From the NCBI GenBank assembly GCA_034521515.1, contig JAXHMH010000002.1:344379-408378 (forward strand): a stretch of 64,000 nucleotides of DNA. Direction: 5' to 3'. Within the stretch, counting starts at the first letter, position 1, and every line of letters starts with the position of its first letter. Source of the stretch: Candidatus Saccharimonadota bacterium (lineage in GTDB: Bacteria > Patescibacteriota > Saccharimonadia > Saccharimonadales > JAXHMH01). Both the position numbers and the translations under genes were made by a program. Of the stretch, positions 2,358 to 56,053 are shown one piece after another. Below the pieces are notes generated by a model. That model searched no databases. It had not been told where the DNA came from and saw only the letters and a program-made list of their open reading frames with translations.

Positions 2358-5132
2358 ATGAAACGAGTCTGGCTACTCTTAGCAATGTTTTTCGTTGCTG
2401 CTATTTTTCAACCTCTTTTCGTGTATGCAATGGATGTGCGTCCACTGGATCAAGCCCAAGTCCCTTCTGGAATCGCGCCTCGCGGAGATACTGGAAATCA
2501 GCTGGCCTTTACTGGTAATGGGCTCACTTTTAATATTATTAACCGTGCGGTAATTGAAGTTGAAGTAGACAATTCCAGTGACCAAGTCTGGACTGGCGTA
2601 GAGACGAGCTCTAGCACCATCGCCAATGTGGTTGGCGGTAGACTTATACGTTCACACCATCACCGTGATCGCTCCCCTAGTAGAGACTTAACTCACTACG
2701 TACTAGATAATTCTACTGATGGCTACGGATCCAAAGGGTATACGAGATATACTGCAATCCGAGACGTTAATGCACTGACAACTAGTTCTGCTGACTTGAG
2801 CGAGAGATGGAGGAGCCTTTCAGACCAAGATATAGTAGATTCATTCGATGGCTCTTGGGCGCAAATTATATCAACGTACGAAAGAATACCGGATCCGGTA
2901 AGAGACGGGTGTCAGCTTACTGTACACGGGCGAGGAGACCTCCATCCTGGTCTAGGTTTGACAAACGCAACTGACGACACCCCAGAATTGCCAGTTGCAT
3001 GGGCGTGCAACGCTGATAGAATTTTCGAGATAACCAACGCGTTAAATAACCTAGAGAATTACAATGTAACACACGAGGCTAACGATGACGGTACGACACT
3101 TGCCATCGTTTTCCCAGAAAACGACGCATCACGCGACTCATTTGTGTATTGCGACGACAATCAGTATGCCCTTGAGAGCTGTGAGAACCCTCGCGGCAAC
3201 TGGATTATAGATGGTCACAACCCTGACGACTTCATGAAAGACTCCAATGTGCCTGTAACCGTAACAAACGGGAGCCAATCATTCCCCATGTCAGTAGCGG
3301 GGAACGAATCAGAATCCTCTACACATATAGGTGGTGGAGGTTCATCGGATCCAGACCAAGACTCCTGTGAATCAGCTGGTAATTTGTCATGGATACTTTG
3401 CGGTTTAGTCCATATGACTGGAGGTGCTCTTAACTGGGTATCTGGCCAAGTTGAGACGCTGCTTGACGTCCCTGAAGAGCGCTATCGTCATGAGGGTATA
3501 CAACAATCGTGGACACTCGTCCGTAATCTTGCTTATATATTGCTCATTCCAGCTATGCTCATCATGGTTATTAGCACTGCGCTTGGTTTTGACTTCGTCA
3601 GCTCCTACACCGTAAAAAGTGCTTTGCCAAGAATGGTAGCGGCAACAATACTGATTGCGCTGTCATGGGAGTTGACTGGGTTTATGATTGCTGTTGTACA
3701 TGCTATAGGCCAGGGTATTGCTGGACTCATATTATACCCGTTCCCAGACGCAGCAACTGAACTTTCCAATATCGTTAGCATTACAACTGGTGGAGCATTA
3801 ACTGTTGGGGTTATTGCTGCCGTTGCTGTAGCTGGCGGTCTGTCAATAATACTATCGTTCCTCGGCTCAGCACTGCTTATAATATTTATGGTATTCATGT
3901 TCCTGGTGGCTCGAGAGATGATGATTTTGGCACTTATCATTGTCGCCCCGCTGGCAATCATAGCCTGGATTTTCCCGGGGCTTAACAAGTTATGGAGTAC
4001 CTGGTGGGGATATTTCTATAAACTATTGTTTATATATCCCGTAATTATGGCAATGTTAGCAATGGGGCTCGTATTTGCCCACATGCTAGACGATGCCCAA
4101 ACTACCGGAGGAGCCGCAGGCGAAGCCCAGAACGCCCTTATCCCACTATTTCAAATTGCTGCAGTAGTTATACCGTTTGCACTTATACCGTTGGCGTTCA
4201 AACAAGCCGGGGGTGCAATGGGAAGCTTAGCTAGTGCCGTAGATCAGAGAAGGCAAGGCGTAGAAGGCAGACTCAAAAAACAACGCGGCGCCAAGGCCGC
4301 CGAAAACTTTGCCAAAACACAAAATTTCAGCCGCTTCAAGGGAGCTAACAGAATATCTAGGGGGGCAAATAGCCTGCTAGGATATACCTCTAATGCCGGT
4401 AAGGCGGGTGTAAATCCACGCAAGTGGAAAAGAAAGCTAAGCACAGTCGCTTCAGATGCATCAATTGCACAGCATGAAGCAATGCTTAAGGATGAAGGTT
4501 ATGAGCCGTGGAAAGGTAACGACGGGCTCAATAAAGCTGCGTCATCAACAAACAATGCTAGGGAGCTAAGAAAAGCACTTATTGCATCGGGTGATTACAA
4601 AGGACCTAACGCTGCTGCAAATCTAAACAGAGACGTTGAACGTGTTGAAGCTATGCGCCAGAAATATGGTAATACGGCACTCAAGCAAGCTGCATGGGTA
4701 CAAGCAATTTCCGGTGGTACTGCATTCAAAGGAACTACTGATGCCTGGGAGGCAGCTGGTAAAATTGCAAACGGTGACGATGCCGTGCTCGCTAAGCTCG
4801 TTGCTCAAGGTCGTAGTGCAGCCATGGGAGCCGGAAGAATCGACCAGGGTGGTGCAGGTTTTATGGACACTATGAAAGTCGCGCAGTCATATTATGAAGA
4901 CCCTGGGTATCGACCTGAGGATGCTGATGCAACTCACGCAGCAAATGTCATTAAATCTCAAGGCCCAGGATCTCTAGCACATGCAAGCATGAAACCTACT
5001 GCAATCAAGAATCTTGCCCCGGCTTTCCAGAAACGCATTGAGGGAGCAACAAAACAGGGCGACAGAGAGACTGCTCAAGCATTGGCATCAGCCGCTGGAT
5101 CACTGACATTGGCACGTCGCCGTGCTTACTAG
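2358..5132 (+). CDS. Large polytopic membrane protein, VirB6/TrbL-like candidate
   Basis: Signal peptide (MKRVWLLLAMFFVAAIFQPLFVYA), ~330-aa ectodomain, about 8-9 hydrophobic helices between aa ~340 and 620, and a ~300-aa soluble C-terminal region. The architecture and position next to PrgI-like/VirB4 genes fit VirB6-type channel subunits. No catalytic motif is seen. Confidence 0.45.
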   Translation: MKRVWLLLAMFFVAAIFQPLFVYAMDVRPLDQAQVPSGIAPRGDTGNQLAFTGNGLTFNIINRAVIEVEVDNSSDQVWTGVETSSSTIANVVGGRLIRSHHHRDRSPSRDLTHYVLDNSTDGYGSKGYTRYTAIRDVNALTTSSADLSERWRSLSDQDIVDSFDGSWAQIISTYERIPDPVRDGCQLTVHGRGDLHPGLGLTNATDDTPELPVAWACNADRIFEITNALNNLENYNVTHEANDDGTTLAIVFPENDASRDSFVYCDDNQYALESCENPRGNWIIDGHNPDDFMKDSNVPVTVTNGSQSFPMSVAGNESESSTHIGGGGSSDPDQDSCESAGNLSWILCGLVHMTGGALNWVSGQVETLLDVPEERYRHEGIQQSWTLVRNLAYILLIPAMLIMVISTALGFDFVSSYTVKSALPRMVAATILIALSWELTGFMIAVVHAIGQGIAGLILYPFPDAATELSNIVSITTGGALTVGVIAAVAVAGGLSIILSFLGSALLIIFMVFMFLVAREMMILALIIVAPLAIIAWIFPGLNKLWSTWWGYFYKLLFIYPVIMAMLAMGLVFAHMLDDAQTTGGAAGEAQNALIPLFQIAAVVIPFALIPLAFKQAGGAMGSLASAVDQRRQGVEGRLKKQRGAKAAENFAKTQNFSRFKGANRISRGANSLLGYTSNAGKAGVNPRKWKRKLSTVASDASIAQHEAMLKDEGYEPWKGNDGLNKAASSTNNARELRKALIASGDYKGPNAAANLNRDVERVEAMRQKYGNTALKQAAWVQAISGGTAFKGTTDAWEAAGKIANGDDAVLAKLVAQGRSAAMGAGRIDQGGAGFMDTMKVAQSYYEDPGYRPEDADATHAANVIKSQGPGSLAHASMKPTAIKNLAPAFQKRIEGATKQGDRETAQALASAAGSLTLARRRAY

Positions 5133-5358
5133 CCCTCAACTTGCTGAAGTTTTTGCAGATAATGTAATGGGCTACGAAGTTGAAGGGTATGGAACCGTTA
5201 AGGACATGATTGAGGCCTACAGAAGTGACGATAACTTTAATCAGATGAGGCGAGAATATGAAAGACAGGCAACAGCTGATGCAGTAAGAAATTCAGCAAA
5301 TCCGCCAGCCGAACCCGGAGCTGGGCCACCTACAGCACCGCAAGATAGGCTTTCTTAA
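5122..5358 (+). CDS. Small hypothetical protein (possibly a frameshifted tail of the preceding gene)
   Basis: GTG start overlaps the stop of 2358..5132 by 11 nt; alternative ATG at 5167. No recognisable domain. It ends just before the SD of the ancestral prgI-like start. Confidence 0.3.
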   Translation: MLTSPQLAEVFADNVMGYEVEGYGTVKDMIEAYRSDDNFNQMRREYERQATADAVRNSANPPAEPGAGPPTAPQDRLS

Positions 5359-5373
5359 AAGGAGAAGGAAAGA

Positions 5374-5426
5374 TGGCAACATATAAAGTAATATCAGATA
5401 TCTAAGCAGAGTATAAACTGCTCGGA
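5374..5426 (+). pseudogene. Duplicated 5' fragment of the PrgI-like gene (remnant start left upstream of an inserted TA cassette)
   Basis: These 53 nt match 6245..6297: the first 30 nt are identical, followed by 4 mismatches. One mismatch (GAA to TAA at 5404-5406) stops the reading frame after 10 codons. The fragment is preceded by a strong SD (AAGGAGAAGGAAAG) that the intact copy lacks. Confidence 0.8.
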
Positions 5427-5518
5427 CAACGGGCTTAGTACAGTAAAACTATCCGAGTAACCTTTTGCAACAACTCGTAGATTAAACACCTAAATATGTA
5501 TATGAACGGAAGTTTAAC

Positions 5519-5558
5519 TTGACTTTAAGTTTAACTCGAGTTAAACTTGAACCATATG
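5519..5558 (+). promoter_or_regulatory. Promoter/operator of the Phd-VapC operon, leaderless configuration
   Basis: TTGACT (5519-5524), 17-nt spacer, TAAACT (5542-5547), then ATG at 5556, 8 nt after the -10. There is no SD. An 18-bp perfect palindrome GTTTAACTCGAGTTAAAC (5529-5546) overlaps the spacer and the -10. Confidence 0.6.
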
Positions 5559-5822
5559 AAAACTATATCTGCTAAAGAGCTGCGTGACAACCTTGGCGAA
5601 ATAACTAAACGGGTGAGCGCCGGCGAACATATCTACGTAAGCTACAGAAATAAACTGTCTTTCAAGCTAGAACCAGCGACCCCTCCAAAGCCCGCGCGTA
5701 AAAAGCTGGCTGGCCTAGAAGCCTTTTTGGCGGCACCAAAGAAGCCTTCTCAGCACAATCCGGACAAACCCGCAAAAGAAATATATCACGAGCTTCTGGA
5801 TGAAAAATATGGCTCCAAGTAA
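5556..5822 (+). CDS. Type II antitoxin, Phd/YefM family
   Basis: The N-terminus MKTISAKELRDNLGEITKRVSAGEHIYVSYRNKLSFKLEP is typical of Phd/YefM. It is small and overlaps the downstream PIN toxin gene. The ORF-track TTG at 5547 is less likely than ATG 5556. Confidence 0.75.
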   Translation: MKTISAKELRDNLGEITKRVSAGEHIYVSYRNKLSFKLEPATPPKPARKKLAGLEAFLAAPKKPSQHNPDKPAKEIYHELLDEKYGSK

Positions 5823-6198
5823 GCTGTTTTTGGATGCCAATATCCTAATAGAGATTCTAGAATCCCGGCCAAAACATAAAAAAGCGGAAAAACTGTTGCT
5901 TTCAGGTGCGGGGAATTTGCATATCTCTACCCTGACATGCCACATTGCTGCTTATGTGTCCCGAAAAAGAATTGGTCTGGAAGTACTCGAACAATTCTTA
6001 GGCGACTATATTTGGCTAGAGCTGAAACCTGAGGACATAGCTTGGGCATTTGATAACCGCCGTGACAATGACTTTGAAGACGCCCTGCAGATTGCCATGG
6101 CTGTAAGAAGTGGTTGTAGCGTGTTTTATACCCTAGATAAGCAACTCGTCAATGCCTATGCTACCTTGCCCACCCTGGAAGTAAAGTTACTCAAATAG
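5800..6198 (+). CDS. vapC: Type II toxin, PIN-domain VapC family
   Basis: PIN acidic-residue pattern: LFLDANILIE near the N-terminus, DFEDALQIAMA, and TLDKQL near the C-terminus. 132 aa, with a 23-nt overlap with the antitoxin gene. Confidence 0.75.
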   Translation: MKNMAPSKLFLDANILIEILESRPKHKKAEKLLLSGAGNLHISTLTCHIAAYVSRKRIGLEVLEQFLGDYIWLELKPEDIAWAFDNRRDNDFEDALQIAMAVRSGCSVFYTLDKQLVNAYATLPTLEVKLLK

Positions 6199-6212
6199 CA
6201 TAAGTATTTACT

Positions 6213-6240
6213 CAGCACTCTGTACTGTGTACTCTGTACT
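6213..6240. repeat. Heptad tandem tract (cagcact ctgtact gtgtact ctgtact)
   Basis: Four consecutive 7-nt units lie directly between the TA cassette and the ATG (6245) of the PrgI-like gene. Confidence 0.75.
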
Positions 6241-6244
6241 TACA

Positions 6245-7366
6245 ATGGCAACATATAAAGTAATATCAGATATCGAAGCAGAAGATAAACTGCTGGGGCC
6301 GCTGACACTCAGACAGTTTATCTATGCATGTATTGTCGTGGTATCGGGTTATATTGCATTTCGCCTTATATTTGTTAGTTGGCTGCTAGTATTGCCGCTA
6401 CTGCCAATCATGATATTTTTTGGTTTATTGGCGTTTCCATTTACCAAAGATCAACCGGCGGAAGTCTGGTTATTGGCGCGTTTGCGGTTTTTCTTAAAAC
6501 CACACTTACGAATCTGGAGCCAAGACGGCATACAAGAGCTAGTATCTGTTACTGCCCCTAAATTACCAGAAAAGCAGCTTACCAAAGACTTTTCCCAGAC
6601 CGAAGTAAAAAGCCGTCTAAGGGCTTTGGCAGATACAATTGATAGCCGTGGATGGGCAGTCAAGAACGTCAACGTTAATCTAACTGGCCAACCATCCGCC
6701 GCAAACGGTGCATCAGATCGGCTCGTCCAGGCCACGTCAACGCCTCAACCGGTTGCCGATATCGATATTGGAGCATCCGATGACATGCTGGATGAACAGT
6801 ATAACCCCCGCGCACAGTCTCTCGATAAACTCATAAACGCCTCCGGTCAAGCGCACCGGCAGCAAATAGTGCAACAGATGAAGCAGGCTCCCCAACAGAC
6901 GCAGGAACCGGCAGCTAATTACTGGTTTATGAACCAACCATCCGGACAACCGCAACCAGGCTACAACACCGGTAAAGGTACCGTAATCACGCCAGGAAGC
7001 AACGACCAAAAACCCTCAAACCAACAACCAACCACCCAAGAGGAACAAGCCTTGCTCGAGAAAATCCATAAATCAAAACAGCAGCCACAACCTGGCTCCA
7101 GTCATATCAAGACTATCCAACCCATCGATCAGAATAACCCCAATCCTGCGCAAACAACACAACCGCAACCAGAAGCTCCTAATCAAGCCAACACCCCACA
7201 ACAAGCTACTAACGAACATCCCCAAACCAGCCCCCAAAAAACACAGCCCGATCCAGCCCTATTAGAACTTGCCCATAACGACGATCTGAATGTCGAAACC
7301 ATAGCCCGCCAGGCCAACAAGCACAACGACGATGACCCGGAGGAAGTGGTAGTATCGCTACATTAA
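6245..7366 (+). CDS. PrgI-family (VirB3-like) T4SS membrane protein with long Q/P-rich C-terminal tail
   Basis: N-terminus MATYKVISDIEAEDKLLGPLTLRQFIY followed by two hydrophobic helices, the PrgI-family pattern. It lies immediately upstream of VirB4-like genes. The C-terminal ~180 aa are Q/P/N-rich low complexity. ATG 6245 is preferred over track GTG 6227 because the duplicated fragment at 5374 begins at the same ATG. Confidence 0.55.
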   Translation: MATYKVISDIEAEDKLLGPLTLRQFIYACIVVVSGYIAFRLIFVSWLLVLPLLPIMIFFGLLAFPFTKDQPAEVWLLARLRFFLKPHLRIWSQDGIQELVSVTAPKLPEKQLTKDFSQTEVKSRLRALADTIDSRGWAVKNVNVNLTGQPSAANGASDRLVQATSTPQPVADIDIGASDDMLDEQYNPRAQSLDKLINASGQAHRQQIVQQMKQAPQQTQEPAANYWFMNQPSGQPQPGYNTGKGTVITPGSNDQKPSNQQPTTQEEQALLEKIHKSKQQPQPGSSHIKTIQPIDQNNPNPAQTTQPQPEAPNQANTPQQATNEHPQTSPQKTQPDPALLELAHNDDLNVETIARQANKHNDDDPEEVVVSLH

Positions 7367-7368
7367 GC

Positions 7369-7403
7369 TGAAGTACTTAGTACATAGTCCTCAGTACCAA
7401 GTA
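7369..7403. repeat. Heptad tandem tract (gtac-type: gaagtac ttagtac atagtcc tcagtac caagtaa)
   Basis: Five 7-nt units lie between the PrgI-like stop and the 3' end of the four-helix-bundle gene. Confidence 0.65.
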
Positions 7404-7418
7404 AAAGCCACTCAACTT

Positions 7419-7769
7419 CTACGATGGTAATTTACGTATAAACCCTGACAGAAGCTTACTGACTTCAATAACCTCAGAAAGCAGTTTCTTTTGATTTTTG
7501 TCGTTAAGATAACCTAAATCTTTAGCAACAATAAGCATCGACTCAACTTCAAACGCTGATCCTTTGGCAATATACAGATAGTTTCTGAGAGATTTGTTGC
7601 TTTGTTTTGCATAACCTTCGGCAATGTTGTTCATAATCGATACAGCTGCGCGTTGAATCTGATCCCTGAACCCGTAATCCTTGCATGTACTAAAAGAACC
7701 GTAAACATCTGTCGTTAATTCGCGAGCTTTTTGCCACGCAATTATGTCTTTAAATGATTCAATACCCAC
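7419..7769 (-). CDS. Four-helix-bundle protein (23S rRNA intervening-sequence protein family)
   Basis: Shows AWQKARELTTDVY, NNIAEGYAKQS and AKGSAFEVESML, signatures of the PF05635/TIGR02436 family. 116 aa, GTG start. It is antisense to the surrounding T4SS genes. Confidence 0.8.
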   Translation of the reverse strand: MGIESFKDIIAWQKARELTTDVYGSFSTCKDYGFRDQIQRAAVSIMNNIAEGYAKQSNKSLRNYLYIAKGSAFEVESMLIVAKDLGYLNDKNQKKLLSEVIEVSKLLSGFIRKLPS

Positions 7770-7801
7770 TAATTCATTCTACCATCATTTAGTTACTAAC
7801 A

Positions 7802-7836
7802 TGTACTAGGTACTAGGTACTGTGTACTCCGTACTT
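7802..7836. repeat. Heptad tandem tract (tgtacta ggtacta ggtactg tgtactc cgtactt)
   Basis: Five phase-locked 7-nt units lie upstream of the four-helix-bundle gene. The CTAG-containing units give stops on both strands. Confidence 0.8.
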
Positions 7837-7898
7837 GGAGGCTTTGTTCTCTCGCGATTTTCCTCTATACTTAAGCTTATAATCTCCTCTTTCTGAGG

Positions 7899-8783
7899 GT
7901 GGGAAACGTTTATTTCATGAATCCTAATTCACCAAACCAACAACCACAACAAAACCAGCCTGCTGCCAACCAACAACAGGGCTATACTCCAGCCGGACAA
8001 CCTGCCTCCGGCCAAGTTAACGCACCCCAACAGCAACCAGCTCCCGCTAAAACCAATCCAAACAGCACGCAAAACTCCATGGAAATTGCCGAAATCCGCG
8101 ATGGGCTGGTGATCATGAATGACGGCAGCTTCCGATCAGTTGTGATGGCAAAGTCAATAAACTTTGACTTGATGAGCAACGAGGAGCGCGAAGCCGTTGA
8201 GTACAGTTATCAAGGCTTTTTAAACTCTTTGTACTTTCCGGTACAGATTTTTGTAAGGTCACAAAAAGTTGATTTGCGGCCGTATATTGAACGGCTTGAT
8301 AAAATTCGCACCGAGCACGACAATATGCTATTAGCGCTCATGATGGAGGATTACATTAATTTTATCGGTGATTTAAGTATGCAGACTAATATTATGGATA
8401 AGAAGTTTTATATTATCATCCCGTATTTCCCGTCAGTTGATGTTCAAAAAGCACTTACTCAGAGCAAGAATTTATTCACCGGAATTACCAGCATGTTTAA
8501 TAAAAATGAGCAGCATGTGGTTGTCAATGAACAAGATCTCAACAAGGCCAAAGATGAACTACGCAACCGTGTTCAGGCAGTGCTCGGCGGTTTACAACAA
8601 TCTGGCGTTCAAGGTCTGCCACTAGATACTCAGGAACTTATTGAGCTGTATTACGATTCATACAATCCAGATACTGCCACCAGACAGCAGCTGAAAAACT
8701 TCAACGATCTAACTGCTCCTATTGTTACACGCGGTGAAGGTCAGGCAGTAAACCCTAGTTTAGAAAGGGAGCTTGATCAATAA
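7899..8783 (+). CDS. VirB4 N-terminal-domain-like protein (first half of an apparently split VirB4)
   Basis: After a Q/P-rich N-terminus comes EIRDGLVIMNDGSFRSVVMAKSINFDLMSNEEREAVEYSYQGFLNSLYFPVQIFVRSQKVDLRPYIERL. This resembles the N-terminal region of Gram-positive VirB4/TraE-type ATPases. The stop overlaps the next ATG (TAATG at 8781-8785). Confidence 0.5.
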   Translation: MGNVYFMNPNSPNQQPQQNQPAANQQQGYTPAGQPASGQVNAPQQQPAPAKTNPNSTQNSMEIAEIRDGLVIMNDGSFRSVVMAKSINFDLMSNEEREAVEYSYQGFLNSLYFPVQIFVRSQKVDLRPYIERLDKIRTEHDNMLLALMMEDYINFIGDLSMQTNIMDKKFYIIIPYFPSVDVQKALTQSKNLFTGITSMFNKNEQHVVVNEQDLNKAKDELRNRVQAVLGGLQQSGVQGLPLDTQELIELYYDSYNPDTATRQQLKNFNDLTAPIVTRGEGQAVNPSLERELDQ

Positions 8784-10699
8784 TGCTCGGCAAGAAGAAA
8801 TCCGATACTCAAACTGATCCGGTCGCCCTAGCGCAAGCACAACGTGCCCGTGAGCAGCAGGAGGTTACTGCCGCTTTCCAAAAGGGCATAACGGCACTGC
8901 GCGATTTTATTGCTCCTGCTTCACTGGAGTTTAAGGGTACTCACTTCCAAATCGGCACTCGTTTTGCCCGTACGTTTTACGTTTACGGATACCCACGCCA
9001 AGTATTTACCGGCTGGATATCCAGTATGGTCAACCTCGATGAGGTGATGGATTTGAGTATATTTATCTATCCGGTCGAGAGCCAGGTAATACTAGAAAAC
9101 TTGCGCAAAAAAGTTTCCCAGATGGAGGCTGGCATCCAGATCGATGCCGAGAAAGGGCGTGTCCGCGACCCCGGCAGGCAGGCCGCCATCCAAGATGCCG
9201 AAGAAATGCGCGACAAATTACAGGTAGGCGAAGAGCGTTTTTTCCGTTTCGGATTTTATTTCACAGTTTACGGTGGCAGCATGGACGAGCTTGAATTTGT
9301 CACCCATAAGGTCGAGTCAGTTCTCGGTCAACAATTAATTTACTCAAAACCTGCCAGCAGCCAACAAGAACAAGGTCTTAACAGTACATTGCCGCAGTTC
9401 AGCGATCAATTACAAATCAGGCGAAACTTCAGCACCGGCGCGTTAAGTACCAGCTTTCCATTTACCAGCGCAGACCTTACACAGGATGAGGGCATCTTGT
9501 ATGGCATAAATATGCACAATTCCGGGCTAGTTATTTTTGACCGTTTCTCTCTAGAAAACGGCAACTCGGTGGTGTTTGCAAAATCCGGTGCCGGCAAATC
9601 GTTCACTGTTAAATTAGAGGCGCTGCGTAGCATGATGTTTGGTACTGAAGTATTTATTATTGACCCGGAAAACGAGTACCAGCGCATGGCAGAAGCCGTT
9701 GGTGGAGCTTATGTCCGGCTTAGTCTTAACTCTGGCACTCGACTTAACCCATTTGATTTACCACAAGTCATAGACACCGACGAGGCGGATAACGCTTTAC
9801 GCAGCAACCTCATAACACTTCATGGGCTATTAAGATTAATGATGGGTGGAGCGCAGACGCAGATGCTTGAGGGCACCGCAACAACTATGCCCGCCCTCGC
9901 ACCATCAGAAGAAGCCGACCTAGACGCCGCGTTAATTGAAACCTATGCCAAGGCCGGTATTACCAACGACCCACTCACCCATAAATCACAGCCCCCTACC
10001 ATAAACGACCTATATGACACATTGCTACACATGGGTGGCAGCGGCCCGCAACTTGCTCAACGCCTCCGTAAATACACTACCGGTACATTCGCCGGCATAT
10101 TCAGCCAACAATCCAACGTAGATATCAACAACCAGTTTGTAGTGTTCAACATCCGTGACCTAGAGGACGAGCTGCGCCCCGTGGCTATGTATATTGTCCT
10201 AAACTACATCTGGAACAAAACCAAATCCGACCAAAAAAGGCGCATGCTAGTAGTTGATGAGGCCTGGCAGCTCATGAAATATGAAGATTCTGCTAACTTC
10301 TTGTTTAGCCTGGCAAAACGCGCTCGCAAATATAACCTTGGTATCACCACGATAACTCAGGACGTAGAGGACTTTATGGGATCGCGCATGGGTCGGGCTA
10401 TTGTGGCCAACGCCAGTATGCAGATACTACTCAAGCAGTCTCCATCGGCTGTAGATGTACTAAGTGACGTGTTCAAACTTACCAGCGAAGAAAAGAAACG
10501 CCTCAGTCAGTTCCCGGTCGGCCAAGGTCTGTTTTTTGCCGGGCAAAACCATGTCCATATCCAGATTGCCGCTAGCCCAACCGAAACCGGTTTAATCACG
10601 ACCAATCCGCAACAAGTACAAGCCGCCGAACAGGGCGGTGAGCTTAATCAGCCCCAAGGTACAATTGACCTTCAAAATCGCCTAACACCAGGCGTATAA
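8783..10699 (+). CDS. virB4: VirB4-like T4SS ATPase (middle and ATPase domains)
   Basis: Walker A is FAKSGAGKSF and Walker B is RMLVVDEAWQLM. The VirB4-type middle region is FARTFYVYGYPRQVFTGWISSMVNLDEVMDLSIFIYP. Also present is RKYNLGITTITQDVEDF. Confidence 0.85.
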   Translation: MLGKKKSDTQTDPVALAQAQRAREQQEVTAAFQKGITALRDFIAPASLEFKGTHFQIGTRFARTFYVYGYPRQVFTGWISSMVNLDEVMDLSIFIYPVESQVILENLRKKVSQMEAGIQIDAEKGRVRDPGRQAAIQDAEEMRDKLQVGEERFFRFGFYFTVYGGSMDELEFVTHKVESVLGQQLIYSKPASSQQEQGLNSTLPQFSDQLQIRRNFSTGALSTSFPFTSADLTQDEGILYGINMHNSGLVIFDRFSLENGNSVVFAKSGAGKSFTVKLEALRSMMFGTEVFIIDPENEYQRMAEAVGGAYVRLSLNSGTRLNPFDLPQVIDTDEADNALRSNLITLHGLLRLMMGGAQTQMLEGTATTMPALAPSEEADLDAALIETYAKAGITNDPLTHKSQPPTINDLYDTLLHMGGSGPQLAQRLRKYTTGTFAGIFSQQSNVDINNQFVVFNIRDLEDELRPVAMYIVLNYIWNKTKSDQKRRMLVVDEAWQLMKYEDSANFLFSLAKRARKYNLGITTITQDVEDFMGSRMGRAIVANASMQILLKQSPSAVDVLSDVFKLTSEEKKRLSQFPVGQGLFFAGQNHVHIQIAASPTETGLITTNPQQVQAAEQGGELNQPQGTIDLQNRLTPGV

Positions 10700-10703
10700 C
10701 AAG

Positions 10704-10731
10704 TTATGAGCTATGAGTGTTGAACTATGAG
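10704..10731. repeat. Heptad tandem tract (ttatgag ctatgag tgttgaa ctatgag)
   Basis: Four 7-nt units lie directly after the virB4 stop. A TGA in each unit gives stops in all three + frames. An inverted copy of the unit (ctcataa) occurs at 10945-10951 on the far side of the truncated gene. Confidence 0.65.
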
Positions 10732-10951
10732 CAAAGCAGCAGAAGGTTACGCCAAACAAATCGACCGATCTTTTAGGCGCTTTTTGCTCACTGCCAAAGG
10801 GTCAGCTTCAAAAGTGCAGTCTATGCTTATACTGGCCGATGACATACAATATACATCAGAGGAGCAACTAGGATCACGCTTCACGTTAGCGAAAGAGGCG
10901 GCAAAGATTATAGGCGGACTTAAAAATAAACTCCATTCTCAAAACTCATAA
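10727..10951 (+). pseudogene. Truncated four-helix-bundle protein gene (C-terminal ~70 aa only)
   Basis: AEGYAKQIDRSFRRFLLTAKGSASKVQSMLIL aligns with residues ~50-116 of the 7419..7769 product. About 45 N-terminal residues (helices 1-2) are missing, and only 27 nt separate it from virB4. Confidence 0.7.
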
Positions 10952-10963
10952 CACATATCTATC

Positions 10964-13789
10964 ATGGCAGTAGAAGATAAAGAAAAATCCGGATCAAAAG
11001 AGGAAATCACGCCAGATTTTTTGCGTGAGGCTACTGGCATTAACCCCGAGCAAGAACAGACTATGGATCGCGAGGCACACAGCGGCGCCGCCAAAGACAT
11101 TGCCGAACGTGAAGGTATAGCCGGCACACAGAAAACTACCGAGGCCGACAAAGCGGAGAGTGACCGGATTGGCACTCCTGACGGTCAAATTGGCGGCGGT
11201 TACAAAGCTAATGCAAAGAAAAAACGTAAGTTTTGGACCAAGAAAAAAGGTGTCGGGGCTGGAATTGCTGGTTTAGCAGTATTCGGTGGCATGGGTCTAT
11301 TCGGTATAATGAGTGGTCCTTTTGGCGTCATGCATTTTGGCCAACTACTTAATCTCAATTTTTTACCCGGAAATTCTATTTTGACTAGCCGAGCGGGCAA
11401 TTTATATAAGTGGTCACAATGGTCTGACCAACCTGAAATGAGACGGTTGGGTGCAATCGGACGCCAATCCATGCGCGGTATCGATGCAAAATTTGAAAGA
11501 GCAGGTTATAGAAAAGTTGTCGGGTCAGGCGGGCGTCTTCATGCCGTTATTGCCCCAAACAACGAAAGAATACCAGTAGATCCACCCGGTACAGGCAAGT
11601 CTGCAGCTAAACAGAACTGGCGTAGAGTTGTTAGGCGAGTTAATTTGGTAAGCACAAAGCGTATTGGCCCTGTTGGATCGCGGTTTGCAACAAGAGCTTA
11701 CGGCATGAACATGGGAAACATACTAAACCCGAGGCGCACGTTACAGGATTGGCAGGCAAAAAGAACCCGAGTTAGAGAGGCTAGGCAGGCAAATAAAACA
11801 GGTACACAACCAGCAGACGTTAGGACTACTGCAGACGACGCCGACGTCGACCGTGCGCCCGGAGATCCAGACCCAAATGAGGGTACCGGAAGACAAAATA
11901 CTACCTCAAGACGAAACACAGCAAGAGCAATAAAAACGGCCTCTGGCATTGCGCTTGGATGTATTGCGATTGAACTTGCCGATCCTGAAGGTGTAGCCCA
12001 TAAAACAAACGTGATTCTTCCGTTAATACGTGGTGCTGGCCGATACTTAACTATCATGGGTCAATTACAGTCGGGTAACGTTGACCACGAGGAGCTCGGC
12101 ATTGTATATCAAGAGCTTGTTGCTGACAACGAAGACGGGGAGCCAACCTCCGCTTTTGCCTCAGCTCCAATGCAACATCTGGCTGGACGCGCCCCTACTG
12201 GTAGAGATATACCACCTGAAGCCCACCCGGTACGTTCAAAAAACTTTTTCGAAAATATCATGGGTGGTGTTTGGAGCAGTATAGAAGGAGTCCAAGGTCC
12301 TATCAGTGCTGGATGCCAACATATCTCCAGCACTGTCGGGCAAATTATTGGCGGCGGTATAGATATAGCTTTATGCGCGGTTAGCGGTGGAGCAACCTGT
12401 GTCGCAAGAGGCGCTATCCAGACTGCGCTTATCGGAGGAGGTATGCACGTACTAGTCAATATATTAGCCGGTGAACAGACTGCTGCTTGCTTTAGTGAAA
12501 CTGTAGAAGAGCTTGACGAGGAAGACACAGAAGTCGCTGGCAACACCCCTGTTGGCGGTGATATTGTAGGTGCCTGCGCAGGGTATGGCGCCCGCATATT
12601 TGCCAATGAGAACATGCTTAACTTTGGTGGCACACAATTAAGCGACGAGGAGTTTGCTGCTGTTCAGCGTTATAGCAATGAATTGGAAACTGAGCGCTTC
12701 CAAAACCAAAGCCTATTCGCAAGATTATTTAGCCCTTATGAACACAAATCCTTGTTCTCTAATGTCGCTCGTAATACATTGGTTTTTGCTTCTGGTAATA
12801 GTGGCCATAAATTCGCACACTCGCTACTGACAGCCCCCTTTGGCATAACGCAAAACTTACTCCAACCATTTAATTCGGCAGTTTACGCGCAGGACAATCG
12901 CACGTTTGATTGGGGCGGTTATCCAGCATACGGTTTTAGTATTGATGAACTGGATGATGAACGGTTTGATAACCCGTTTGAAAACGCTTCTATCGTCGCC
13001 GATAGACTTGATGATAGCGACGTAAAAGATAAAATTGAGCGCTGTTTTGCTCTTGAGCTGCAAGACGATTACTCCTTAAAAAGGATAGATGATGAGGTTA
13101 GGTCAGTACATTCACTTGATGGCTGCGACGACCAGGACGAAGTTTGGAAGCGTATAAGGTTTTATATACTAGACACCCAAATTGCGGAGACTATGAATTG
13201 TTATGAAGGCGATCATACCAGTTGCCGAACAATCGGTTTCGATGTCGCAAACGCTGAATCCGAACAATCCACCTCGCGACCAGCTCCCGACGAAGCTATT
13301 GTGGGAGATACTTCTGACCAACCCTGCGCATCAGGCACAGATGACCTCGGAACTGCAACCGGTTACAATAACGGGGACGCTTATACTATCCGGCTGTGCT
13401 CCATACCCGGTTTTACCTCTGAATGGCCGGGTGAAGAATTCATAAGAATAAACTCAACGGTATCAGGGAATTGGCTAAACTTATTCCAAGCTGCCCGAAC
13501 AGACGGTATAGATCTCCAAGCCGTCAATTCCTTCAGAAGCATGGAACGCCAGCAAGTGCTTTACGATCGATATCTGGCAGGCCGCGGGAACTTGGCCGCT
13601 CAACCAGGACACTCTAACCATCAGCTTGGTTTTGCAGTCGATATCGTTATGGATGACCGTGGTTTAAATCTAGAACAGTGCCGAGCTAATGCTGCACAAT
13701 ATCCAATATTTAGCTGGCTGAGAGATAACTCTTCCGACTTTGGCATCGAAGCAAATGTTCCAGATGAATGCTGGCATTGGTCGTCATGA
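10964..13789 (+). CDS. Large membrane-anchored protein with C-terminal M15B (VanY-type) D,D-peptidase domain
   Basis: Charged N-terminus, hydrophobic segment GAGIAGLAVFGGMGLFGIMSGPFGV and a large uncharacterised middle. C-terminal motifs are SFRSMERQQVLY, HSNHQLGFAVDI and DECWHWS, which are zinc D-Ala-D-Ala carboxypeptidase signatures. Confidence 0.7.
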   Translation: MAVEDKEKSGSKEEITPDFLREATGINPEQEQTMDREAHSGAAKDIAEREGIAGTQKTTEADKAESDRIGTPDGQIGGGYKANAKKKRKFWTKKKGVGAGIAGLAVFGGMGLFGIMSGPFGVMHFGQLLNLNFLPGNSILTSRAGNLYKWSQWSDQPEMRRLGAIGRQSMRGIDAKFERAGYRKVVGSGGRLHAVIAPNNERIPVDPPGTGKSAAKQNWRRVVRRVNLVSTKRIGPVGSRFATRAYGMNMGNILNPRRTLQDWQAKRTRVREARQANKTGTQPADVRTTADDADVDRAPGDPDPNEGTGRQNTTSRRNTARAIKTASGIALGCIAIELADPEGVAHKTNVILPLIRGAGRYLTIMGQLQSGNVDHEELGIVYQELVADNEDGEPTSAFASAPMQHLAGRAPTGRDIPPEAHPVRSKNFFENIMGGVWSSIEGVQGPISAGCQHISSTVGQIIGGGIDIALCAVSGGATCVARGAIQTALIGGGMHVLVNILAGEQTAACFSETVEELDEEDTEVAGNTPVGGDIVGACAGYGARIFANENMLNFGGTQLSDEEFAAVQRYSNELETERFQNQSLFARLFSPYEHKSLFSNVARNTLVFASGNSGHKFAHSLLTAPFGITQNLLQPFNSAVYAQDNRTFDWGGYPAYGFSIDELDDERFDNPFENASIVADRLDDSDVKDKIERCFALELQDDYSLKRIDDEVRSVHSLDGCDDQDEVWKRIRFYILDTQIAETMNCYEGDHTSCRTIGFDVANAESEQSTSRPAPDEAIVGDTSDQPCASGTDDLGTATGYNNGDAYTIRLCSIPGFTSEWPGEEFIRINSTVSGNWLNLFQAARTDGIDLQAVNSFRSMERQQVLYDRYLAGRGNLAAQPGHSNHQLGFAVDIVMDDRGLNLEQCRANAAQYPIFSWLRDNSSDFGIEANVPDECWHWSS

Positions 13790-15008: not shown

Positions 15009-15722
15009 ATGTATAACGTAAATAAAAAACATATTATCCTGGCAATCTTAGTGCTGTCCGCGCTACTGTTAATATTTGGAATAAAAATATACTTGGATAA
15101 CCAACGTTTCCAAGTCTTCTCGACTACTCCATCACTTACACAAACCGTCGCAACCAGCACTTCTGTAATAAAGCTTGACTTTAATAAACCGCTTTCAGAT
15201 GATTCTTCCTATAACAGAACGCTTATTAAGGATCTTGATGAGCTAGCATATATACATGATGTTGAGCGAGCTGGTGATTCACTGCTGGTTAGGCTGGGCA
15301 CACTCAACTCCGGACAAGAATACACTGTTACATTTAATGATATTATTTCAGCTGATGGTGATGTTATATCGGACTTAAGTTATACATTTTTTGTTGACTA
15401 TATTCCGTACGATCGACTATCTGAAGCACAGAAAGCTTTGGAGCTACAAGAAACTGATCGAGGGAGTGAAGATGACCCAGTGCTTAACTATGTACCACAC
15501 TCAACATTACGGTATGAAATTAATCCTATACAGAGAACCAACAACGACGGTGTATATTCGCTTGGCTTGGACATAAAAATTATCCTTTCTAACGCCGACA
15601 GGTCTAACCAAGATGCCGCTATCGCTACATATAAAGAAATGGCTATGGATTACTTGCGTTCTGTTGACATCAACCCAGACGATTATGATATTTACTACCG
15701 TATTATTGAACCGACTCTTTAG
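15009..15722 (+). CDS. Membrane-anchored hypothetical protein, possible Ig-like ectodomain
   Basis: N-terminal TM (HIILAILVLSALLLIFGI), then TPSLTQTVATSTSVIKLDFNKPLSDDS ... GQEYTVTFNDIISADG, which resembles SbsA/Big-type Ig-like domains. It is the last gene of the + strand cluster, and its 3' end overlaps the recF 3' end convergently. Confidence 0.4.
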   Translation: MYNVNKKHIILAILVLSALLLIFGIKIYLDNQRFQVFSTTPSLTQTVATSTSVIKLDFNKPLSDDSSYNRTLIKDLDELAYIHDVERAGDSLLVRLGTLNSGQEYTVTFNDIISADGDVISDLSYTFFVDYIPYDRLSEAQKALELQETDRGSEDDPVLNYVPHSTLRYEINPIQRTNNDGVYSLGLDIKIILSNADRSNQDAAIATYKEMAMDYLRSVDINPDDYDIYYRIIEPTL

Positions 15723-16785
15723 TTTTGTTTGTCGGAATAACGTGGCACTGGTCTAGAAAATGCTGCACAACGATATCAGCATCCGTGGTAGTTATAAACG
15801 TTTGATAACCAGCCAAAAACTCGGTTAACGCCATGCGCCGGGCGCCATCCAGCTCACTAAACACATCGTCAAGTAGTAGTATCGGTTTCTCATCGCGCAC
15901 TTCCTCGACCAACCGCACTTCAACAATCTTCAACCCAAGTAGTAGCGTCCGTATCTCGCCGCGCGACCCAACCTCATCCGCCGGATGATTGTCCAACGTA
16001 ATGTGCATATCGTCACGGTGAGGGCCGTACCCGGTAAAGCCACGCTGTATATCCAAGTCCTGCGTGGCTTCCAGTTTGCTCAACATCTGTGACTCATACT
16101 GATGCCCGCTACAAGCTGTTTTATACTTAACACCCACCGTAATCTTACTGTCTGACAGTTGTCGGTAGATAGTCTGGAGTTCTTGATTAATTCGGTTCAC
16201 CAGTGCCAGTCGTTCTTTAGCGATTGCACCACCTAGTTCTGCCAGCCTGATATTCCAGGCAAAAATCTGAGTGTTAACATGGCTATCGCCAGACTTTAAT
16301 AACGCATTACGTTGCGCCAACGTCCGCTTATATTGGCGGCGAAGCTGCCCGAAACCGACCACCATCTGCTCCAACATATCGTCCATAAACTCGCGCCGGC
16401 GTTCAGGTGATCCGGTAAGCAGCCGTAAATCATCCGGCTCAAACAATACAACCGGTACGGTTTTATTCAGCGACAAACGCTTGTATGTCTTATCCGCCAA
16501 AACAAAACTTTTCTGAACCCGATCGGCACCCTCTATTGTTTCTAATTTAACCGTGCGCGTCCCGTGGCTAGTAAATGCGTCGAGGCGCGACCACGGAGCT
16601 TTGTGGCGAACCAACTCACTATCCCGAGCCCTGTATGAACTACCCAGACACGCTACCAATAGCGCCTCCAGCAAATTTGTTTTACCGCTAGCGTTTGGGC
16701 CAACCACAATGTTAACCCCAGGCTCAAACTCAAAACTATCGTTATGATATGACCTAAAGTCCTGCAAGTTAAGCGCTTCAATCAC
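15703..16785 (-). CDS. recF: DNA replication and repair protein RecF
   Basis: Walker A is GPNASGKTNLLEAL and the Walker B-like motif is ILLLDDVFSELD. GTG start. It sits in the dnaA-dnaN-recF synteny. Confidence 0.9.
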   Translation of the reverse strand: MIEALNLQDFRSYHNDSFEFEPGVNIVVGPNASGKTNLLEALLVACLGSSYRARDSELVRHKAPWSRLDAFTSHGTRTVKLETIEGADRVQKSFVLADKTYKRLSLNKTVPVVLFEPDDLRLLTGSPERRREFMDDMLEQMVVGFGQLRRQYKRTLAQRNALLKSGDSHVNTQIFAWNIRLAELGGAIAKERLALVNRINQELQTIYRQLSDSKITVGVKYKTACSGHQYESQMLSKLEATQDLDIQRGFTGYGPHRDDMHITLDNHPADEVGSRGEIRTLLLGLKIVEVRLVEEVRDEKPILLLDDVFSELDGARRMALTEFLAGYQTFITTTDADIVVQHFLDQCHVIPTNKTKESVQ

Positions 16786-17158
16786 GCTTAGTCTCCCGTC
16801 GCTTGTCGCTTGTCGCTAGCTTACCAATAAACCCTGTCAGTAATTTTGAGATCTCTATTGAGATACCTGTGAATTGTTTGTACTCATTTTGATGAATTTT
16901 ATTTGCTGCTAGCGCAATATGAAGCATGGAGCGGACTTCCGCACATGAGCCACGTGCAATTACTAAAAACTGCCTAAGCTCCTTGTCCGAACTCCTGTCA
17001 AACCCTTCGGCAATATTGTTAGTGATAGATAAGCAAGCTCTCATAATCTGATCCTTAAACGATAGATCTCTCTCATACTTCAACTCCTTACTAAGCCCTA
17101 TGTATAGCTCTTCGCCTTTTTGCCAGGCAATCACATCCTCAAAATTCCTTATACGCAT
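16778..17158 (-). CDS. Four-helix-bundle protein (23S rRNA intervening-sequence protein family) inserted between dnaN and recF
   Basis: Shows VIAWQKGEELY, NNIAEGFDRSS and ARGSCAEVRSML. The C-terminal 10 aa (ATSDKRRETKRD) are encoded by a heptad tract, and the stop overlaps the recF GTG (GTGATTGA). Confidence 0.8.
   Translation of the reverse strand: MRIRNFEDVIAWQKGEELYIGLSKELKYERDLSFKDQIMRACLSITNNIAEGFDRSSDKELRQFLVIARGSCAEVRSMLHIALAANKIHQNEYKQFTGISIEISKLLTGFIGKLATSDKRRETKRD
16797..16817. repeat. Heptad tandem tract (cgtcgct tgtcgct tgtcgct) inside the 3' end of the four-helix-bundle ORF
   Basis: Three 7-nt units, stop-free on the minus strand, are translated as a C-terminal extension. Confidence 0.7.
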
Positions 17159-17210
17159 AACTATATTGTACTGGAGACTAAAATGACTGGTAACTAGTGA
17201 CTTAAAAGCT

Positions 17211-18302
17211 TTAGCTTTTCAGTGGCATAATCACATGCAAATAATCATCAGTGGCAATATCGTAGAGCAGTGATGGCTCGAGCTTATCGTTAAACCCAAA
17301 CCGCACCGTTTCACCAGATAACACATTAAGTGCATCAAGCAAGTAGCGCGAATTTAGCGTAATAACACCATCGCCCTTAACTTCAGCCGATGCGTTAGAA
17401 GTGTTTTCACCCAACTGAGAAGCGATGGAACGAATACTGAGTTGTTGATCCTTTTCGCTTAGATTAATTGTTACACTACCGGCGCTTTCCCTGGCAAATA
17501 AGCTTGATACTTTGGTTACATTGGTCAGTTCGCTGCGTTTTAAGGTAGCACTGGTGGCAAAATCTCGCGGTATAAGTTTGCGATAATCAGGATATTTACC
17601 GTCAATCAACCTGGTCACTAACTCAACATCACCCACCTTAAACAACACCTGCTGGTCATCATGCGACACCTCGACATCATCTTCGCCGTCAGACACAATC
17701 CGTAGCAAATCTTGCATAGCGTTAGCCGGTATAAGTAGATTTATGTTTTCTTTTGTTTTGTGTAGCTTCTTTTCAGCTAAACGGTAACTATCGGTTGCAA
17801 CCATATATAAATTACCTTCGTGTGTGTGTAGATACACACCGGTTAAAACTGGGCGGGCTTCGTCGTTAGAAGCCGCTACGATGACTTGTTGTAAGGCGGT
17901 TTTTAGGGTTTTTCCGGGTATAGTCCATTTGTTAGCTTGCTTAATCGCTGGCATTACCGGAAAATCCTCGGCTGATATACCGTTGATAGTTGAATTGTAT
18001 TTATCGGTTGTGATGTGTAAGCGGTTTTCTTCAAGTTCTAAATCGATAACGCCGCTCGGTAAACTACCTACAAAATCCTGCATAAGCCTAGCTGGTACAG
18101 TAATCGACCCTTCTTCGCTAACCTTTGACCCGATGTAGTGGGTGATTGCAATATCCAGGTTTGTTGCCGCAATACTCAAACGGTTATCAACTGTTTTTAT
18201 AAGCACATTGGCAAGTACAGGGAGTGTCCCACGCGTATTAGCAACTCGAGCCACGGTTTGTAGTGCTTTTGTTAAGTTTTCCTGGGTGACTTGTAGCTTC
18301 AT
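17211..18302 (-). CDS. dnaN: DNA polymerase III beta sliding clamp
   Basis: The N-terminus MKLQVTQENLTKALQTVARVANTRGTLPVLANVLI is typical. 363 aa, downstream of dnaA. Confidence 0.92.
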   Translation of the reverse strand: MKLQVTQENLTKALQTVARVANTRGTLPVLANVLIKTVDNRLSIAATNLDIAITHYIGSKVSEEGSITVPARLMQDFVGSLPSGVIDLELEENRLHITTDKYNSTINGISAEDFPVMPAIKQANKWTIPGKTLKTALQQVIVAASNDEARPVLTGVYLHTHEGNLYMVATDSYRLAEKKLHKTKENINLLIPANAMQDLLRIVSDGEDDVEVSHDDQQVLFKVGDVELVTRLIDGKYPDYRKLIPRDFATSATLKRSELTNVTKVSSLFARESAGSVTINLSEKDQQLSIRSIASQLGENTSNASAEVKGDGVITLNSRYLLDALNVLSGETVRFGFNDKLEPSLLYDIATDDYLHVIMPLKS

Positions 18303-18580
18303 TTTAGACTCCTTATTACTGATTTATATAAATAGTTTTAGTTATAGTAAGGCCTGTGTAAACCGTGTAAAACTCATATTTTACAGTGGTGTAAATACGT
18401 AAAAACCGTAGGAAAACCCTGCGTATAGATTGGGTATAAAATGTGCGCAAGTCGGGTGTTTTGTACCAGGATAACTAACCTACAAGCGCCTGTGAACAAC
18501 TGCACCAAACTACCCACAGGTTGTACAAGTATTTGTGCACAACTTACCCCCAGGTTTTCTGTACGCGAACTATAAGACTG

Positions 18581-18664
18581 CAACCTACTAACTACCAATT
18601 CCTTCACCCCATCTACCATATACCAACTACTAACTACCAACTGCCATCTACCAACTACCAGCCT
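18581..18664. repeat. Heptad tandem tract, 12 units (ccaacta/ccatcta/ctaacta type) abutting the dnaA stop
   Basis: The tract is 84 nt in unbroken 7-nt register. On the minus (dnaA sense) strand the units read tagttgg/tagatgg, giving TAG in all frames. It is the same unit family as 54585-54605. Confidence 0.8.
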
Positions 18665-22437: not shown

Positions 22438-22672
22438 CCACCGTAAATACACCTTCTTTATTTGTAGCAGCGTTACTCTGCTGTATAGCCAACCAACGGC
22501 TATCCGTATAAATCCTGCAAATAAAGGACTGCGACGCGCACCAAACAAATAGTTAATTCGCCAAAAACTAGTCGTGCAGAAGTCCCATACAGACTAAGTA
22601 TCACCCAAAAACTTAAAAATGTTTCCAACTTCCAAGACACCCTAGTTTTAGCCAATGGTAGCTATCAAGGCT

Positions 22673-54406: not shown

Positions 54407-54410
54407 TGAT

Positions 54411-54724: not shown

Positions 54725-54774
54725 CACAACCTGTTCACTGACGACTGATTACGGGCTACTAGCGAATGCTACAA

Positions 54775-54813
54775 TTGACATAAATCCTTCCGTTATATAT
54801 ACTTTGGTATATG
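54775..54813 (+). promoter_or_regulatory. Promoter of the DinJ/YafQ-like operon, leaderless configuration
   Basis: TTGACA (54775-54780), 17 nt, TATACT (54798-54803), then ATG at 54811, 7 nt after the -10. There is no SD. Confidence 0.6.
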
Positions 54814-55364: not shown

Positions 55365-55382
55365 AATATAGTATTTCGTATC

Positions 55383-55501: not shown

Positions 55502-55518
55502 TTCTACTTCCGTATATT

Positions 55519-56031: not shown

Positions 56032-56053
56032 ATAGCACCTATTAACTAAAATT

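Follow-up and report, generated by a model that had tools for sequence, protein, structure and literature searches.

We analysed a 64,000-nt stretch of DNA from a Candidatus Saccharimonadota bacterium (contig JAXHMH010000002.1, positions 344,379-408,378 of the forward strand; hereafter the window, to which all coordinates refer unless a related locus is named), in which three tracts of heptanucleotide repeats lie around a prgI-like gene of a type IV secretion operon and a neighbouring antisense gene for a four-helix-bundle protein of the S23p family (PF05635). Tracts 2 and 3 enclose the PF05635 gene as a unit of 468 nt. With moderate confidence, we take the tracts to be the terminal inverted arms of a cassette of the type known from the intervening sequences (IVSs) of 23S rRNA, located here outside rRNA, whose arms would form an RNase III-type stem, given that its S23p cargo and heptad arms recur in the IVSs of Azospirillum and Coxiella and that its size and stem length are close to those of the latter. 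Such arms are coupled to their cassettes, follow a common anatomy, are complementary to each other in a cassette-specific manner, and occur across phyla.

The preliminary description of this DNA had reported heptad tracts of four, five and five units at the boundaries between a toxin-antitoxin (TA) pair, the prgI-like gene, the four-helix-bundle gene and the gene for the N-terminal part of VirB4 (virB4N). The tracts are present as claimed, and the gene boundaries agree with the Pfam and NCBIfam matches by which we delimited the genes of this region (Table 1). Tract 1 ends 4 nt ahead of the prgI start codon and tract 2 starts 3 nt past its stop codon; tract 2, with GTAC motifs at 7373, 7380 and 7394, is too degenerate to be detected by Tandem Repeats Finder (TRF). 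A second occurrence of the 9-mer cttagtaca, previously placed at 5429-5437, is found at 5434-5442. The tracts are real and far beyond chance: GTAC motifs spaced by 7 nt occur seven times in the 64 kb, never outside tracts 1-3, and the window contains 20 tracts with a period of 7, whereas each of the remaining periods between 4 and 12 accounts for none or one. The structure becomes clear from the orientation of tract 2 (AGTAC), unnoticed earlier, which is the reverse complement of that of tracts 1 and 3 (GTACT).

In both minimum-free-energy and centroid folds of 7355-7850, computed for either strand, the cassette is closed by pairing of tract 2 with tract 3. The duplex of the two arms reaches -36.0 kcal/mol on the plus strand and -33.4 kcal/mol on the minus strand, beyond all of 500 random pairs of 35-mers drawn from the window (-11.4 +/- 4.4 kcal/mol, minimum -30). 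No rRNA or other Rfam family was found in the window.

A scan with VirB4C, the C-terminal part of VirB4, yielded 80 loci of 83-90% amino-acid identity, nearly all from Saccharibacteria/Saccharimonadales, in which the order PrgI, VirB4N, VirB4C is conserved; prgI is a host gene and lies outside the cassette. Relatives without the inserted gene might still have carried tracts at the same place, yet in 70 of 77 related loci the prgI/virB4N junction has neither insert nor heptad tract, and its short empty spacer leads into a conserved GGTGGG...ATG(A/G)ATCC start. A PF05635 gene occupies this junction in five loci (L008, L053, L059, L070 and L078), in both orientations and drawn from two protein subfamilies, with tracts on both sides in every case. 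The arms of these cassettes comprise four to five heptads per side, and the sides are reverse-complementary with a unit that differs for each cassette: AGACTTA on the left and TAAGTCT on the right in L008, TAGGTT and AACCTA in L078, AGAGATG and CNTCTCA in L059, GAGTC and GACTC in L053, TGAGT and CTCAA in L070, and AGTAC and GTACT in the window. In L062, the PF05635 gene is gone and a two-unit remnant of a right arm like that of L053 has been kept. The proposed tie between tracts and inserted genes thus holds, as tracts occur only with a cassette or its remnant; what does not hold is the notion of tracts as generic marks of gene junctions, since they are paired inverted arms.

The neighbouring junction tells a similar story. 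In every relative, VirB4 is split at one and the same point into open reading frames (ORFs) for its N (about 290 residues) and C (638 residues) parts, which span 7917-10699 in the window, and these abut in 61 of the 80 loci. Another 13 loci have an insert of 61-250 nt with heptad tracts between them, among which L075 (-50 kcal/mol), L069 and L079 represent hairpins without cargo. The insert in L059 and L070 is a PF05635 gene of a divergent subfamily (SxGANYxEA...KEAxET), which was outside the reach of our first family profile and was found at this junction. In L059, the divergent gene (6893-8449 of that locus) is interrupted by a Mutator-family insertion sequence with a transposase at 7369-8202, and heptad arms of the CAATTTN type still flank both halves; a PIN-type TA pair (6152-6846) is located between this cassette and a further four-helix-bundle cassette.

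The window holds two further PF05635 genes. One belongs to a decayed cassette between virB4C and a gene for a VanY-domain protein, for which L070 provides a complete orthologue with the same unit family. The other, intact, is found between dnaN and recF, a site that is also occupied in six relatives (L002, L015, L017, L059, L069 and L070); the units of the dnaN/recF cassettes differ (AAAGT, ATAGT, NAGT, GNAAYTG), and complementarity between a cassette's own arms is kept in each. The three PF05635 genes of the window share 46-51% mutual identity, and their arm units are unrelated.

Our sample of 103 PF05635 genes comprised Saccharimonadales, metagenomes, and plasmids of cyanobacteria, Bacteroidota and Azospirillum. 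As two of seven positions vary, strict tandem-repeat detection (12/14 matches) missed most arms, and flank-centred scoring was used. Inverted, cassette-specific arms are present in 17 Saccharimonadales cassettes and in six of eight plasmid cases from Cyanobacteria, Bacteroidota and Alphaproteobacteria, the plasmids being those of Nostoc, Geminocystis, Picosynechococcus, Anabaena, Riemerella and Azospirillum. For 78 independent metagenome genes, the match of the upstream flank to the reverse complement of the downstream flank exceeded the 95th percentile of controls in 67% and the 99th percentile in 59%, as compared to 18% and 13% for direct similarity of the flanks. Permutation of own against foreign arms gave 0 of 5000 in each of three datasets. 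The arm unit consists of a 5-nt core and a 2-4-nt spacer, with a best period of 7 for 40 genes, of 9 for 15 and of 8 for 12. Over 1.87 Mb, we counted 262 tandem tracts, compared to two in shuffled sequence, and 77 inverted tract pairs, 47 of which hold a single PF05635 ORF with no other content. The median arm segment that pairs is 27 nt long at 88% identity; the upstream segment stops a median of 21 nt short of the start codon, and the downstream one sets in 15 nt past the stop codon. Arms most often have 4 units (median 4.4), with a long tail up to 18. In alignments, the protein motif QxxRxxxSxxxNIAEG ... GSxxE is invariant across cassettes, whatever their unit.

Among the plasmid cassettes, that of Picosynechococcus lies between cas10 and cmr3 and that of Anabaena between cas6 and cas4. 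Altogether, the cyanobacterial plasmids L082, L083 and L084 have heptad-flanked four-helix-bundle genes in CRISPR-cas operons, with inverted arrays in L082 and L083 and direct ones in L084. A survey found 18 four-helix-bundle genes in cas loci and treated them as candidates for cas-associated functions (PMC3936711); the arms suggest that they are inserted cassettes instead.

The arm pairs also have a compositional polarity. The window and loci L001-L168 together provide 61 PF05635 cassettes whose arms are clear, three of which are ties; of the 58 that are informative, 53 have a 5' arm rich in purines and poor in C (G 29%, C 8%), and the mirror configuration is almost absent. We dropped the idea that this represents a polarity relative to the ORF, because an inverted pair reads alike on both strands; the 53:5 bias is therefore a property of the pair and does not show which strand is transcribed. 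It does argue against neutrality, that is, against the proposal that the tracts are mere slippage-prone microsatellites such as arise in any non-coding DNA made by insertion, with no role of their own. Among long simple repeats, those of heptanucleotides are the most frequent in many bacteria and have been attributed to polymerase slippage (Mrazek 2007, as cited in PMC4679880), heptamer copy number varies between Coxiella strains (PMC4990558), and the window itself contains unpaired heptad arrays after the dnaA stop codon, between cysC and cysQ, and in a Wzy-like ORF. However, neutral slippage predicts neither the polarity nor the reverse complementarity of the flanks seen in the permutations, neither the presence of one gene family inside 47 of 77 inverted pairs nor complementarity that is kept through unit turnover at the dnaN/recF site. 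We regard it as largely refuted for the paired arms and as very improbable as an account of the tracts.

The window cassette shares its architecture with true rRNA IVSs. The Coxiella IVS is 428-444 nt long and has a 28-bp terminal inverted-repeat stem with an S23p ORF in the loop; RNase III cleaves within the stem, the mapped 5' cut lying at the first of several tandem GACAGAT heptamers upstream of the S23p start, whose number is strain-variable (PMC4990558). In Azospirillum (L086), a genuine 23S rRNA gene (RF02541, 2537 bits) contains an IVS in helix 45 with a PF05635-like ORF between GACNGAN heptad arms (GACGGAT GACAGAG GACGGAG GACAGAA, plus the inverse). IVSs of the Leptospira, Coxiella, Brucella and Xanthomonas type have in common with the window cassette the cargo family, a similar size, an ORF enclosed by a complementary stem of similar length, a 5' arm with tandem heptamers, and a sporadic distribution with signs of decay. 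They differ in location, as the rRNA elements are found in helix 9, 25 or 45 of 23S rRNA and the window-type elements between protein genes of operons (type IV secretion, dnaN-recF, cyanobacterial cas). Unlike rRNA IVSs, the latter occur in either orientation to the host genes, have stems that variable spacers break every 5 bp, and may hold a TA pair or no cargo at all between their arms.

We propose that the cassette was inserted as one unit into the prgI-virB4N spacer of the Saccharibacteria type IV secretion operon. According to the predicted folds, a transcript of either strand would have its arms joined in an imperfect stem, roughly 30 bp long, with the cassette looped out, and RNase III would then cut this stem, by analogy with the S23p IVSs of rRNA, and thereby remove the insert or insulate it from the host transcript. 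Such cleavage or insulation would explain how inserts are tolerated in essential operons. Replication slippage is the most likely origin of the tandem units of the arms, as is supported by the variable heptamer number in Coxiella; slippage would leave the arms pairable in any register, while copy number shifts and units are homogenised within a cassette.

The TA pair upstream of prgI appears to lie, as an alternative cargo, in a second and decayed copy of the same arm pair, since tract 1 copies tract 3 and the segment at 5434-5449 (CTTAGTACA-GTAAAAC) resembles tract 2. Tract 1 is 81% identical to 7801-7836 over 36 nt, with the register kept unit for unit. Pairing of 5434-5449 with tract 1 amounts to -11.6 kcal/mol, which is the random level. 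The left edge of the TA-bearing insertion is marked by a duplicated fragment of the prgI 5' end that follows the native ribosome-binding site and reaches a stop codon after 10 codons. These features would fit a history in which prgI and the cassette were duplicated in tandem, with later deletion and replacement of the cargo. Between 2000 and 14500, the only direct repeats found are the arm copies and this 53-nt duplication. A HicA/HicB-like pair inside inverted arms is seen in L110.

Regarding translation signals, tract 1 and the right arm of the second cassette of the window abut start codons, namely those of prgI (6245) and the VanY-domain gene (10964), and no Shine-Dalgarno sequence lies between arm end and start codon at 6240-6247 or 10959-10966; the native prgI ribosome-binding site is kept upstream of the duplicated fragment at 5373. 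A promoter and terminator scan of 5100-8100 gave counts no higher than expected from shuffled sequence.

Several observations weigh against an RNase III-type stem as the function of the arms. About 40% of the sampled PF05635 genes have no clear arm pair, and a few have direct or unrelated arrays (L084 and L088), the cases without inverted arms on the plasmids being that of Pseudanabaena, with long direct arrays, and one of Nostoc, with unrelated units on the two sides. The z-scores for folding of the whole cassette are modest (-2.25 and -1.65), and the window stem, made up of 5-bp helices split by 2x2 mismatches, is less suited as an RNase III substrate than the stem of Coxiella, which is nearly perfect. 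The TA cassette persists without a pairing left arm, so that the stem is not needed there. Mismatches between arms are G.U-compatible in 54 versus 51 cases and thus without bias on either strand, although this asymmetry is uninformative because the mismatches, mostly transversions, fall for the most part into the unpaired variable spacers; judged by their sequence, the arms would favour RNA pairing no more than DNA pairing. No signature of an rnc gene was seen in the 64-kb window, which says nothing on the rest of the genome.

Some of these points bear on a different proposal, according to which the arms are terminal inverted repeats of a mobile cassette at the DNA level, with units that bind a recombinase or the cassette protein and are cut and joined on movement. 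The absence of a G.U bias is compatible with it, as are the variable presence of cassettes at identical junctions in close relatives, in both orientations and from at least two protein subfamilies at the prgI/virB4N site, the repeated colonisation of four junctions of one operon, cargo-less derivatives reminiscent of miniature inverted-repeat transposable elements (MITEs), and the exchange of cargo, with one arm pair around two cargos in the window and the HicA/HicB-like cargo of L110. An early proposal, moreover, saw IVSs as mobile elements and assigned their ORF a role in mobility (Ralph and McClelland 1993, as cited in PMC4990558). However, a common sequence-specific recogniser is unlikely, given that the unit differs in almost every cassette while key protein residues are invariant, and the cassettes contain no transposase or integrase. 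The window lacks the several near-identical copies with the same ends that characterise transposons or MITEs, its three PF05635 genes being as diverged as described above and the arms of only one cassette being duplicated. A target-site duplication is not definable, as divergence among the empty-site spacers prevents their alignment; the 53-nt duplication of prgI is unlike a transposase footprint in its excessive length and its start right at the ATG. As regards integron gene cassettes, the immediate neighbours, for which this was assessed, include no integrase, and the arms are tandem repeats rather than attC-like sites. We therefore consider mobility of this kind rather unlikely as an explanation of the arms; it may, however, coexist with the formation of an RNA stem.

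Alternatively, the heptads could be a binding array for a ring-shaped pentamer, one unit per subunit, with the protein bound to its own flanks, either as RNA or as single-stranded DNA, so that its transcript is autoregulated, protected or processed. The PDB homologues of the four-helix-bundle protein, 2GSC and 2RLD, both have five chains, and Xcc0516 has been described as a homopentameric toroid (Lin 2006, as cited in PMC4990558). The typical number of four to five units per arm would agree with this idea, as would the close distance between the 5' arm and the start codon and the purine-rich, C-poor character of this arm, which is what one would look for in a single-strand binding site. Nevertheless, unit counts extend far beyond five, an arm of about 30 nt equally fits the need of an RNase III stem, and the protein motif stays constant whatever the unit. 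Cargo-less hairpins persist without the protein, and in Coxiella the IVS is processed even though S23p is apparently not made in vivo (PMC4990558). In our view, a pentamer-binding array is improbable as the role of the arms, and we retain pairing into an RNase III-type stem as our working model.

Table 1. Repeat tracts, genes and gene fragments of the window discussed in the text.
Feature	Position	Strand	Details
Duplicated prgI 5' end	5373-5425	+	53 nt, 92% identical to 6245-6297
Decayed left arm of TA-bearing copy	5434-5449		By alignment; CTTAGTACA and GTAAAA in common with tract 2
Phd-type antitoxin gene	5547-5822	+	PF02604, 4e-5
PIN-domain toxin gene	5800-6198	+	PF01850, 9e-12; TA pair 5547-6198
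Tract 1 (GTACT-type heptads)	6213-6240		4 units: cagcact ctgtact gtgtact ctgtact; direct reading and TRF
prgI-like type IV secretion gene	6245-7366	+	PF12666, 8e-10; syntenic in 77 relatives
Tract 2 (AGTAC-type heptads)	7369-7403		Left arm of four-helix-bundle cassette; 5 units: tgaagta cttagta catagtc ctcagta ccaagta
Four-helix-bundle (S23p) gene, intact	7419-7769	-	116 aa; PF05635, 6e-35 (full model); TIGR02436/23S_rRNA_IVP, 1.5e-32
Tract 3 (GTACT-type heptads)	7802-7836		Right arm; 5 units: tgtacta ggtacta ggtactg tgtactc cgtactt; TRF
VirB4 N-part gene	7917-8783		Pfam/NCBIfam
Left arm of second, decayed cassette (ATGAG-type)	10702-10736		agttatg agctatg agtgttg aactatg agcaaag
Truncated four-helix-bundle gene	10727-10951	+	C-terminal two thirds only; PF05635, 7.6e-11, model 44-105
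Right arm of second cassette (CTCAT-type)	10938-10966		Degenerate, weak; runs into start codon of next gene (10964)
Third four-helix-bundle gene, intact	16778-17158	-	PF05635, 3.5e-26; between dnaN and recF
Heptad arm upstream of third gene (NAGT-type)	about 17159-17215	-	
RelB/DinJ and YafQ-like pair	54811-55364		cysC-cysQ locus
Ribbon-helix-helix (RHH) and ParE pair	55554-56031		cysC-cysQ locus

Heptad arrays of a different arrangement are found elsewhere in the window. Two TA pairs lie between sat/cysC (end 54406) and cysQ (start 56181), at 54404-56186, and are split by a composite array rich in purines, (GAGACTN)n(TGATAGN)n, that is repeated in direct copies, as well as by (AATAGGA)8 and (TGGTAGG)5. 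These arrays are direct and, unlike the GTAC arms, form no inverted pairs. The preliminary description had ascribed both loci to a common process with locally homogenised units; the cassette-specific units fit homogenisation, whereas a single process for the two loci is not established, as the cysC-cysQ arrays are not inverted, and a common origin of the two is no more than possible.

The third cassette of the window is part of a dnaA-dnaN-(cassette)-recF operon on the minus strand (15703-20030). The dnaA-dnaN spacer (18303-18662) is probably oriC, because it is dense in 9-mers resembling DnaA boxes (ttgtgcaca, ttgttcaca, ttataccca, tttacacca). Directly after the dnaA stop codon, and thus beside the probable origin, is a seven-unit TGGTAGN tract (18608-18662, coding strand) of which we found no inverted counterpart; TGGTAGG, a similar unit, recurs in the cysC-cysQ arrays (54573-54607). 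We considered a 98-aa ORF at 18374-18670 as another cassette and rejected it, since it has no family match, its heptad tract has no inverted partner and it falls into the probable origin; it is probably spurious. Within a Wzy/O-antigen-ligase-like ORF (31206-32705), an in-frame 96-nt block of (AAAAGTA)(CTCAAGT)(TCAACTA) at 31938-32033 accounts for about 32 additional residues immediately ahead of the Wzy_C domain. Two coding repeats are unrelated to cassette arms: five copies of CCAAAAA in the lysine-rich C-terminal tail of YidC (21844-21886) and a 9-nt unit repeated in the acidic C-terminal tail of a KH/R3H (Jag-like) protein (22390-22440).

S23p IVSs, their inverted-repeat stems, their excision by RNase III and the heptamers of Coxiella are already known. 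In the literature that we covered, for the most part outside subscription journals, there is no report of arms enclosing PF05635 genes outside rRNA across phyla, of arms that are systematically tandem and cassette-specific with a fixed polarity, or of such arms being empty or holding TA genes. One may tentatively go further and suppose, as a possibility that we put well below the interpretation of the window cassette itself, that one ancient class of intercistronic elements, bracketed by hairpins, has most free-standing PF05635 genes as its cargo, with the IVSs of rRNA as its best-known landing site. The arms would then represent a substantial share of the unexplained heptamer repeats of cyanobacteria and other phyla, the pentamer may act on the 4-5 units of an arm and so process or move the element, and TA genes could replace the cargo. 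Genes annotated as 'four helix bundle protein' are scattered over thousands of genomes, often within cas, secretion and replication operons. If they were indeed carried by IVS-type cassettes, a dead end of annotation would become a defined element with a testable mechanism, the tolerance of inserts in essential operons would be explained, rRNA IVSs would be joined to a much wider family, and some of the cyanobacterial heptamer repeats known since 1990 would have found an origin. Paired inverted arms of short repeats would provide a simple annotation signature for inserted cassettes and their decayed remnants.

Neisseria has miniature intergenic elements that form hairpins and that RNase III cuts after co-transcription. 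Like the cassettes described here, these Correia elements have inverted ends, sit between genes in operons and include copies without cargo; they differ in having one conserved end sequence genome-wide, no ORF, and ends that are not tandem repeats. At the protein level, PF05635 resembles Avd (PMC10053308), the accessory protein of diversity-generating retroelements (DGRs), which belongs to the same fold and family neighbourhood and likewise forms a pentameric assembly. An assignment to DGRs was rejected, as none of the three PF05635 genes of the window has a reverse transcriptase or a template/variable repeat pair (about 100 bp) in its vicinity; the neighbours of the cassettes are Phd, PIN, PrgI, VirB4, VanY-domain, CHAP and CopC-domain genes. 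With respect to the repeats, the excess of 7-nt tandems in the window is of the kind seen for the heptanucleotide repeats of other bacteria, such as the short tandemly repeated repetitive (STRR) sequences of cyanobacteria, the TAACTGA repeats of Beggiatoaceae, Cyanobacteria and Bacteroidetes (PMC4679880), or the long simple sequence repeats (LSSRs) of Mrazek 2007. These, too, consist of tandem intergenic 7-nt units that often end a few bases ahead of a start codon, and they occur in phyla that also harbour heptad-armed PF05635 genes. However, they are direct arrays of one genome-wide unit, for which neither an inverted partner nor a link to a gene family has been reported, whereas the arms of the cassettes have a unit specific to each cassette and form an inverted pair around one gene family.

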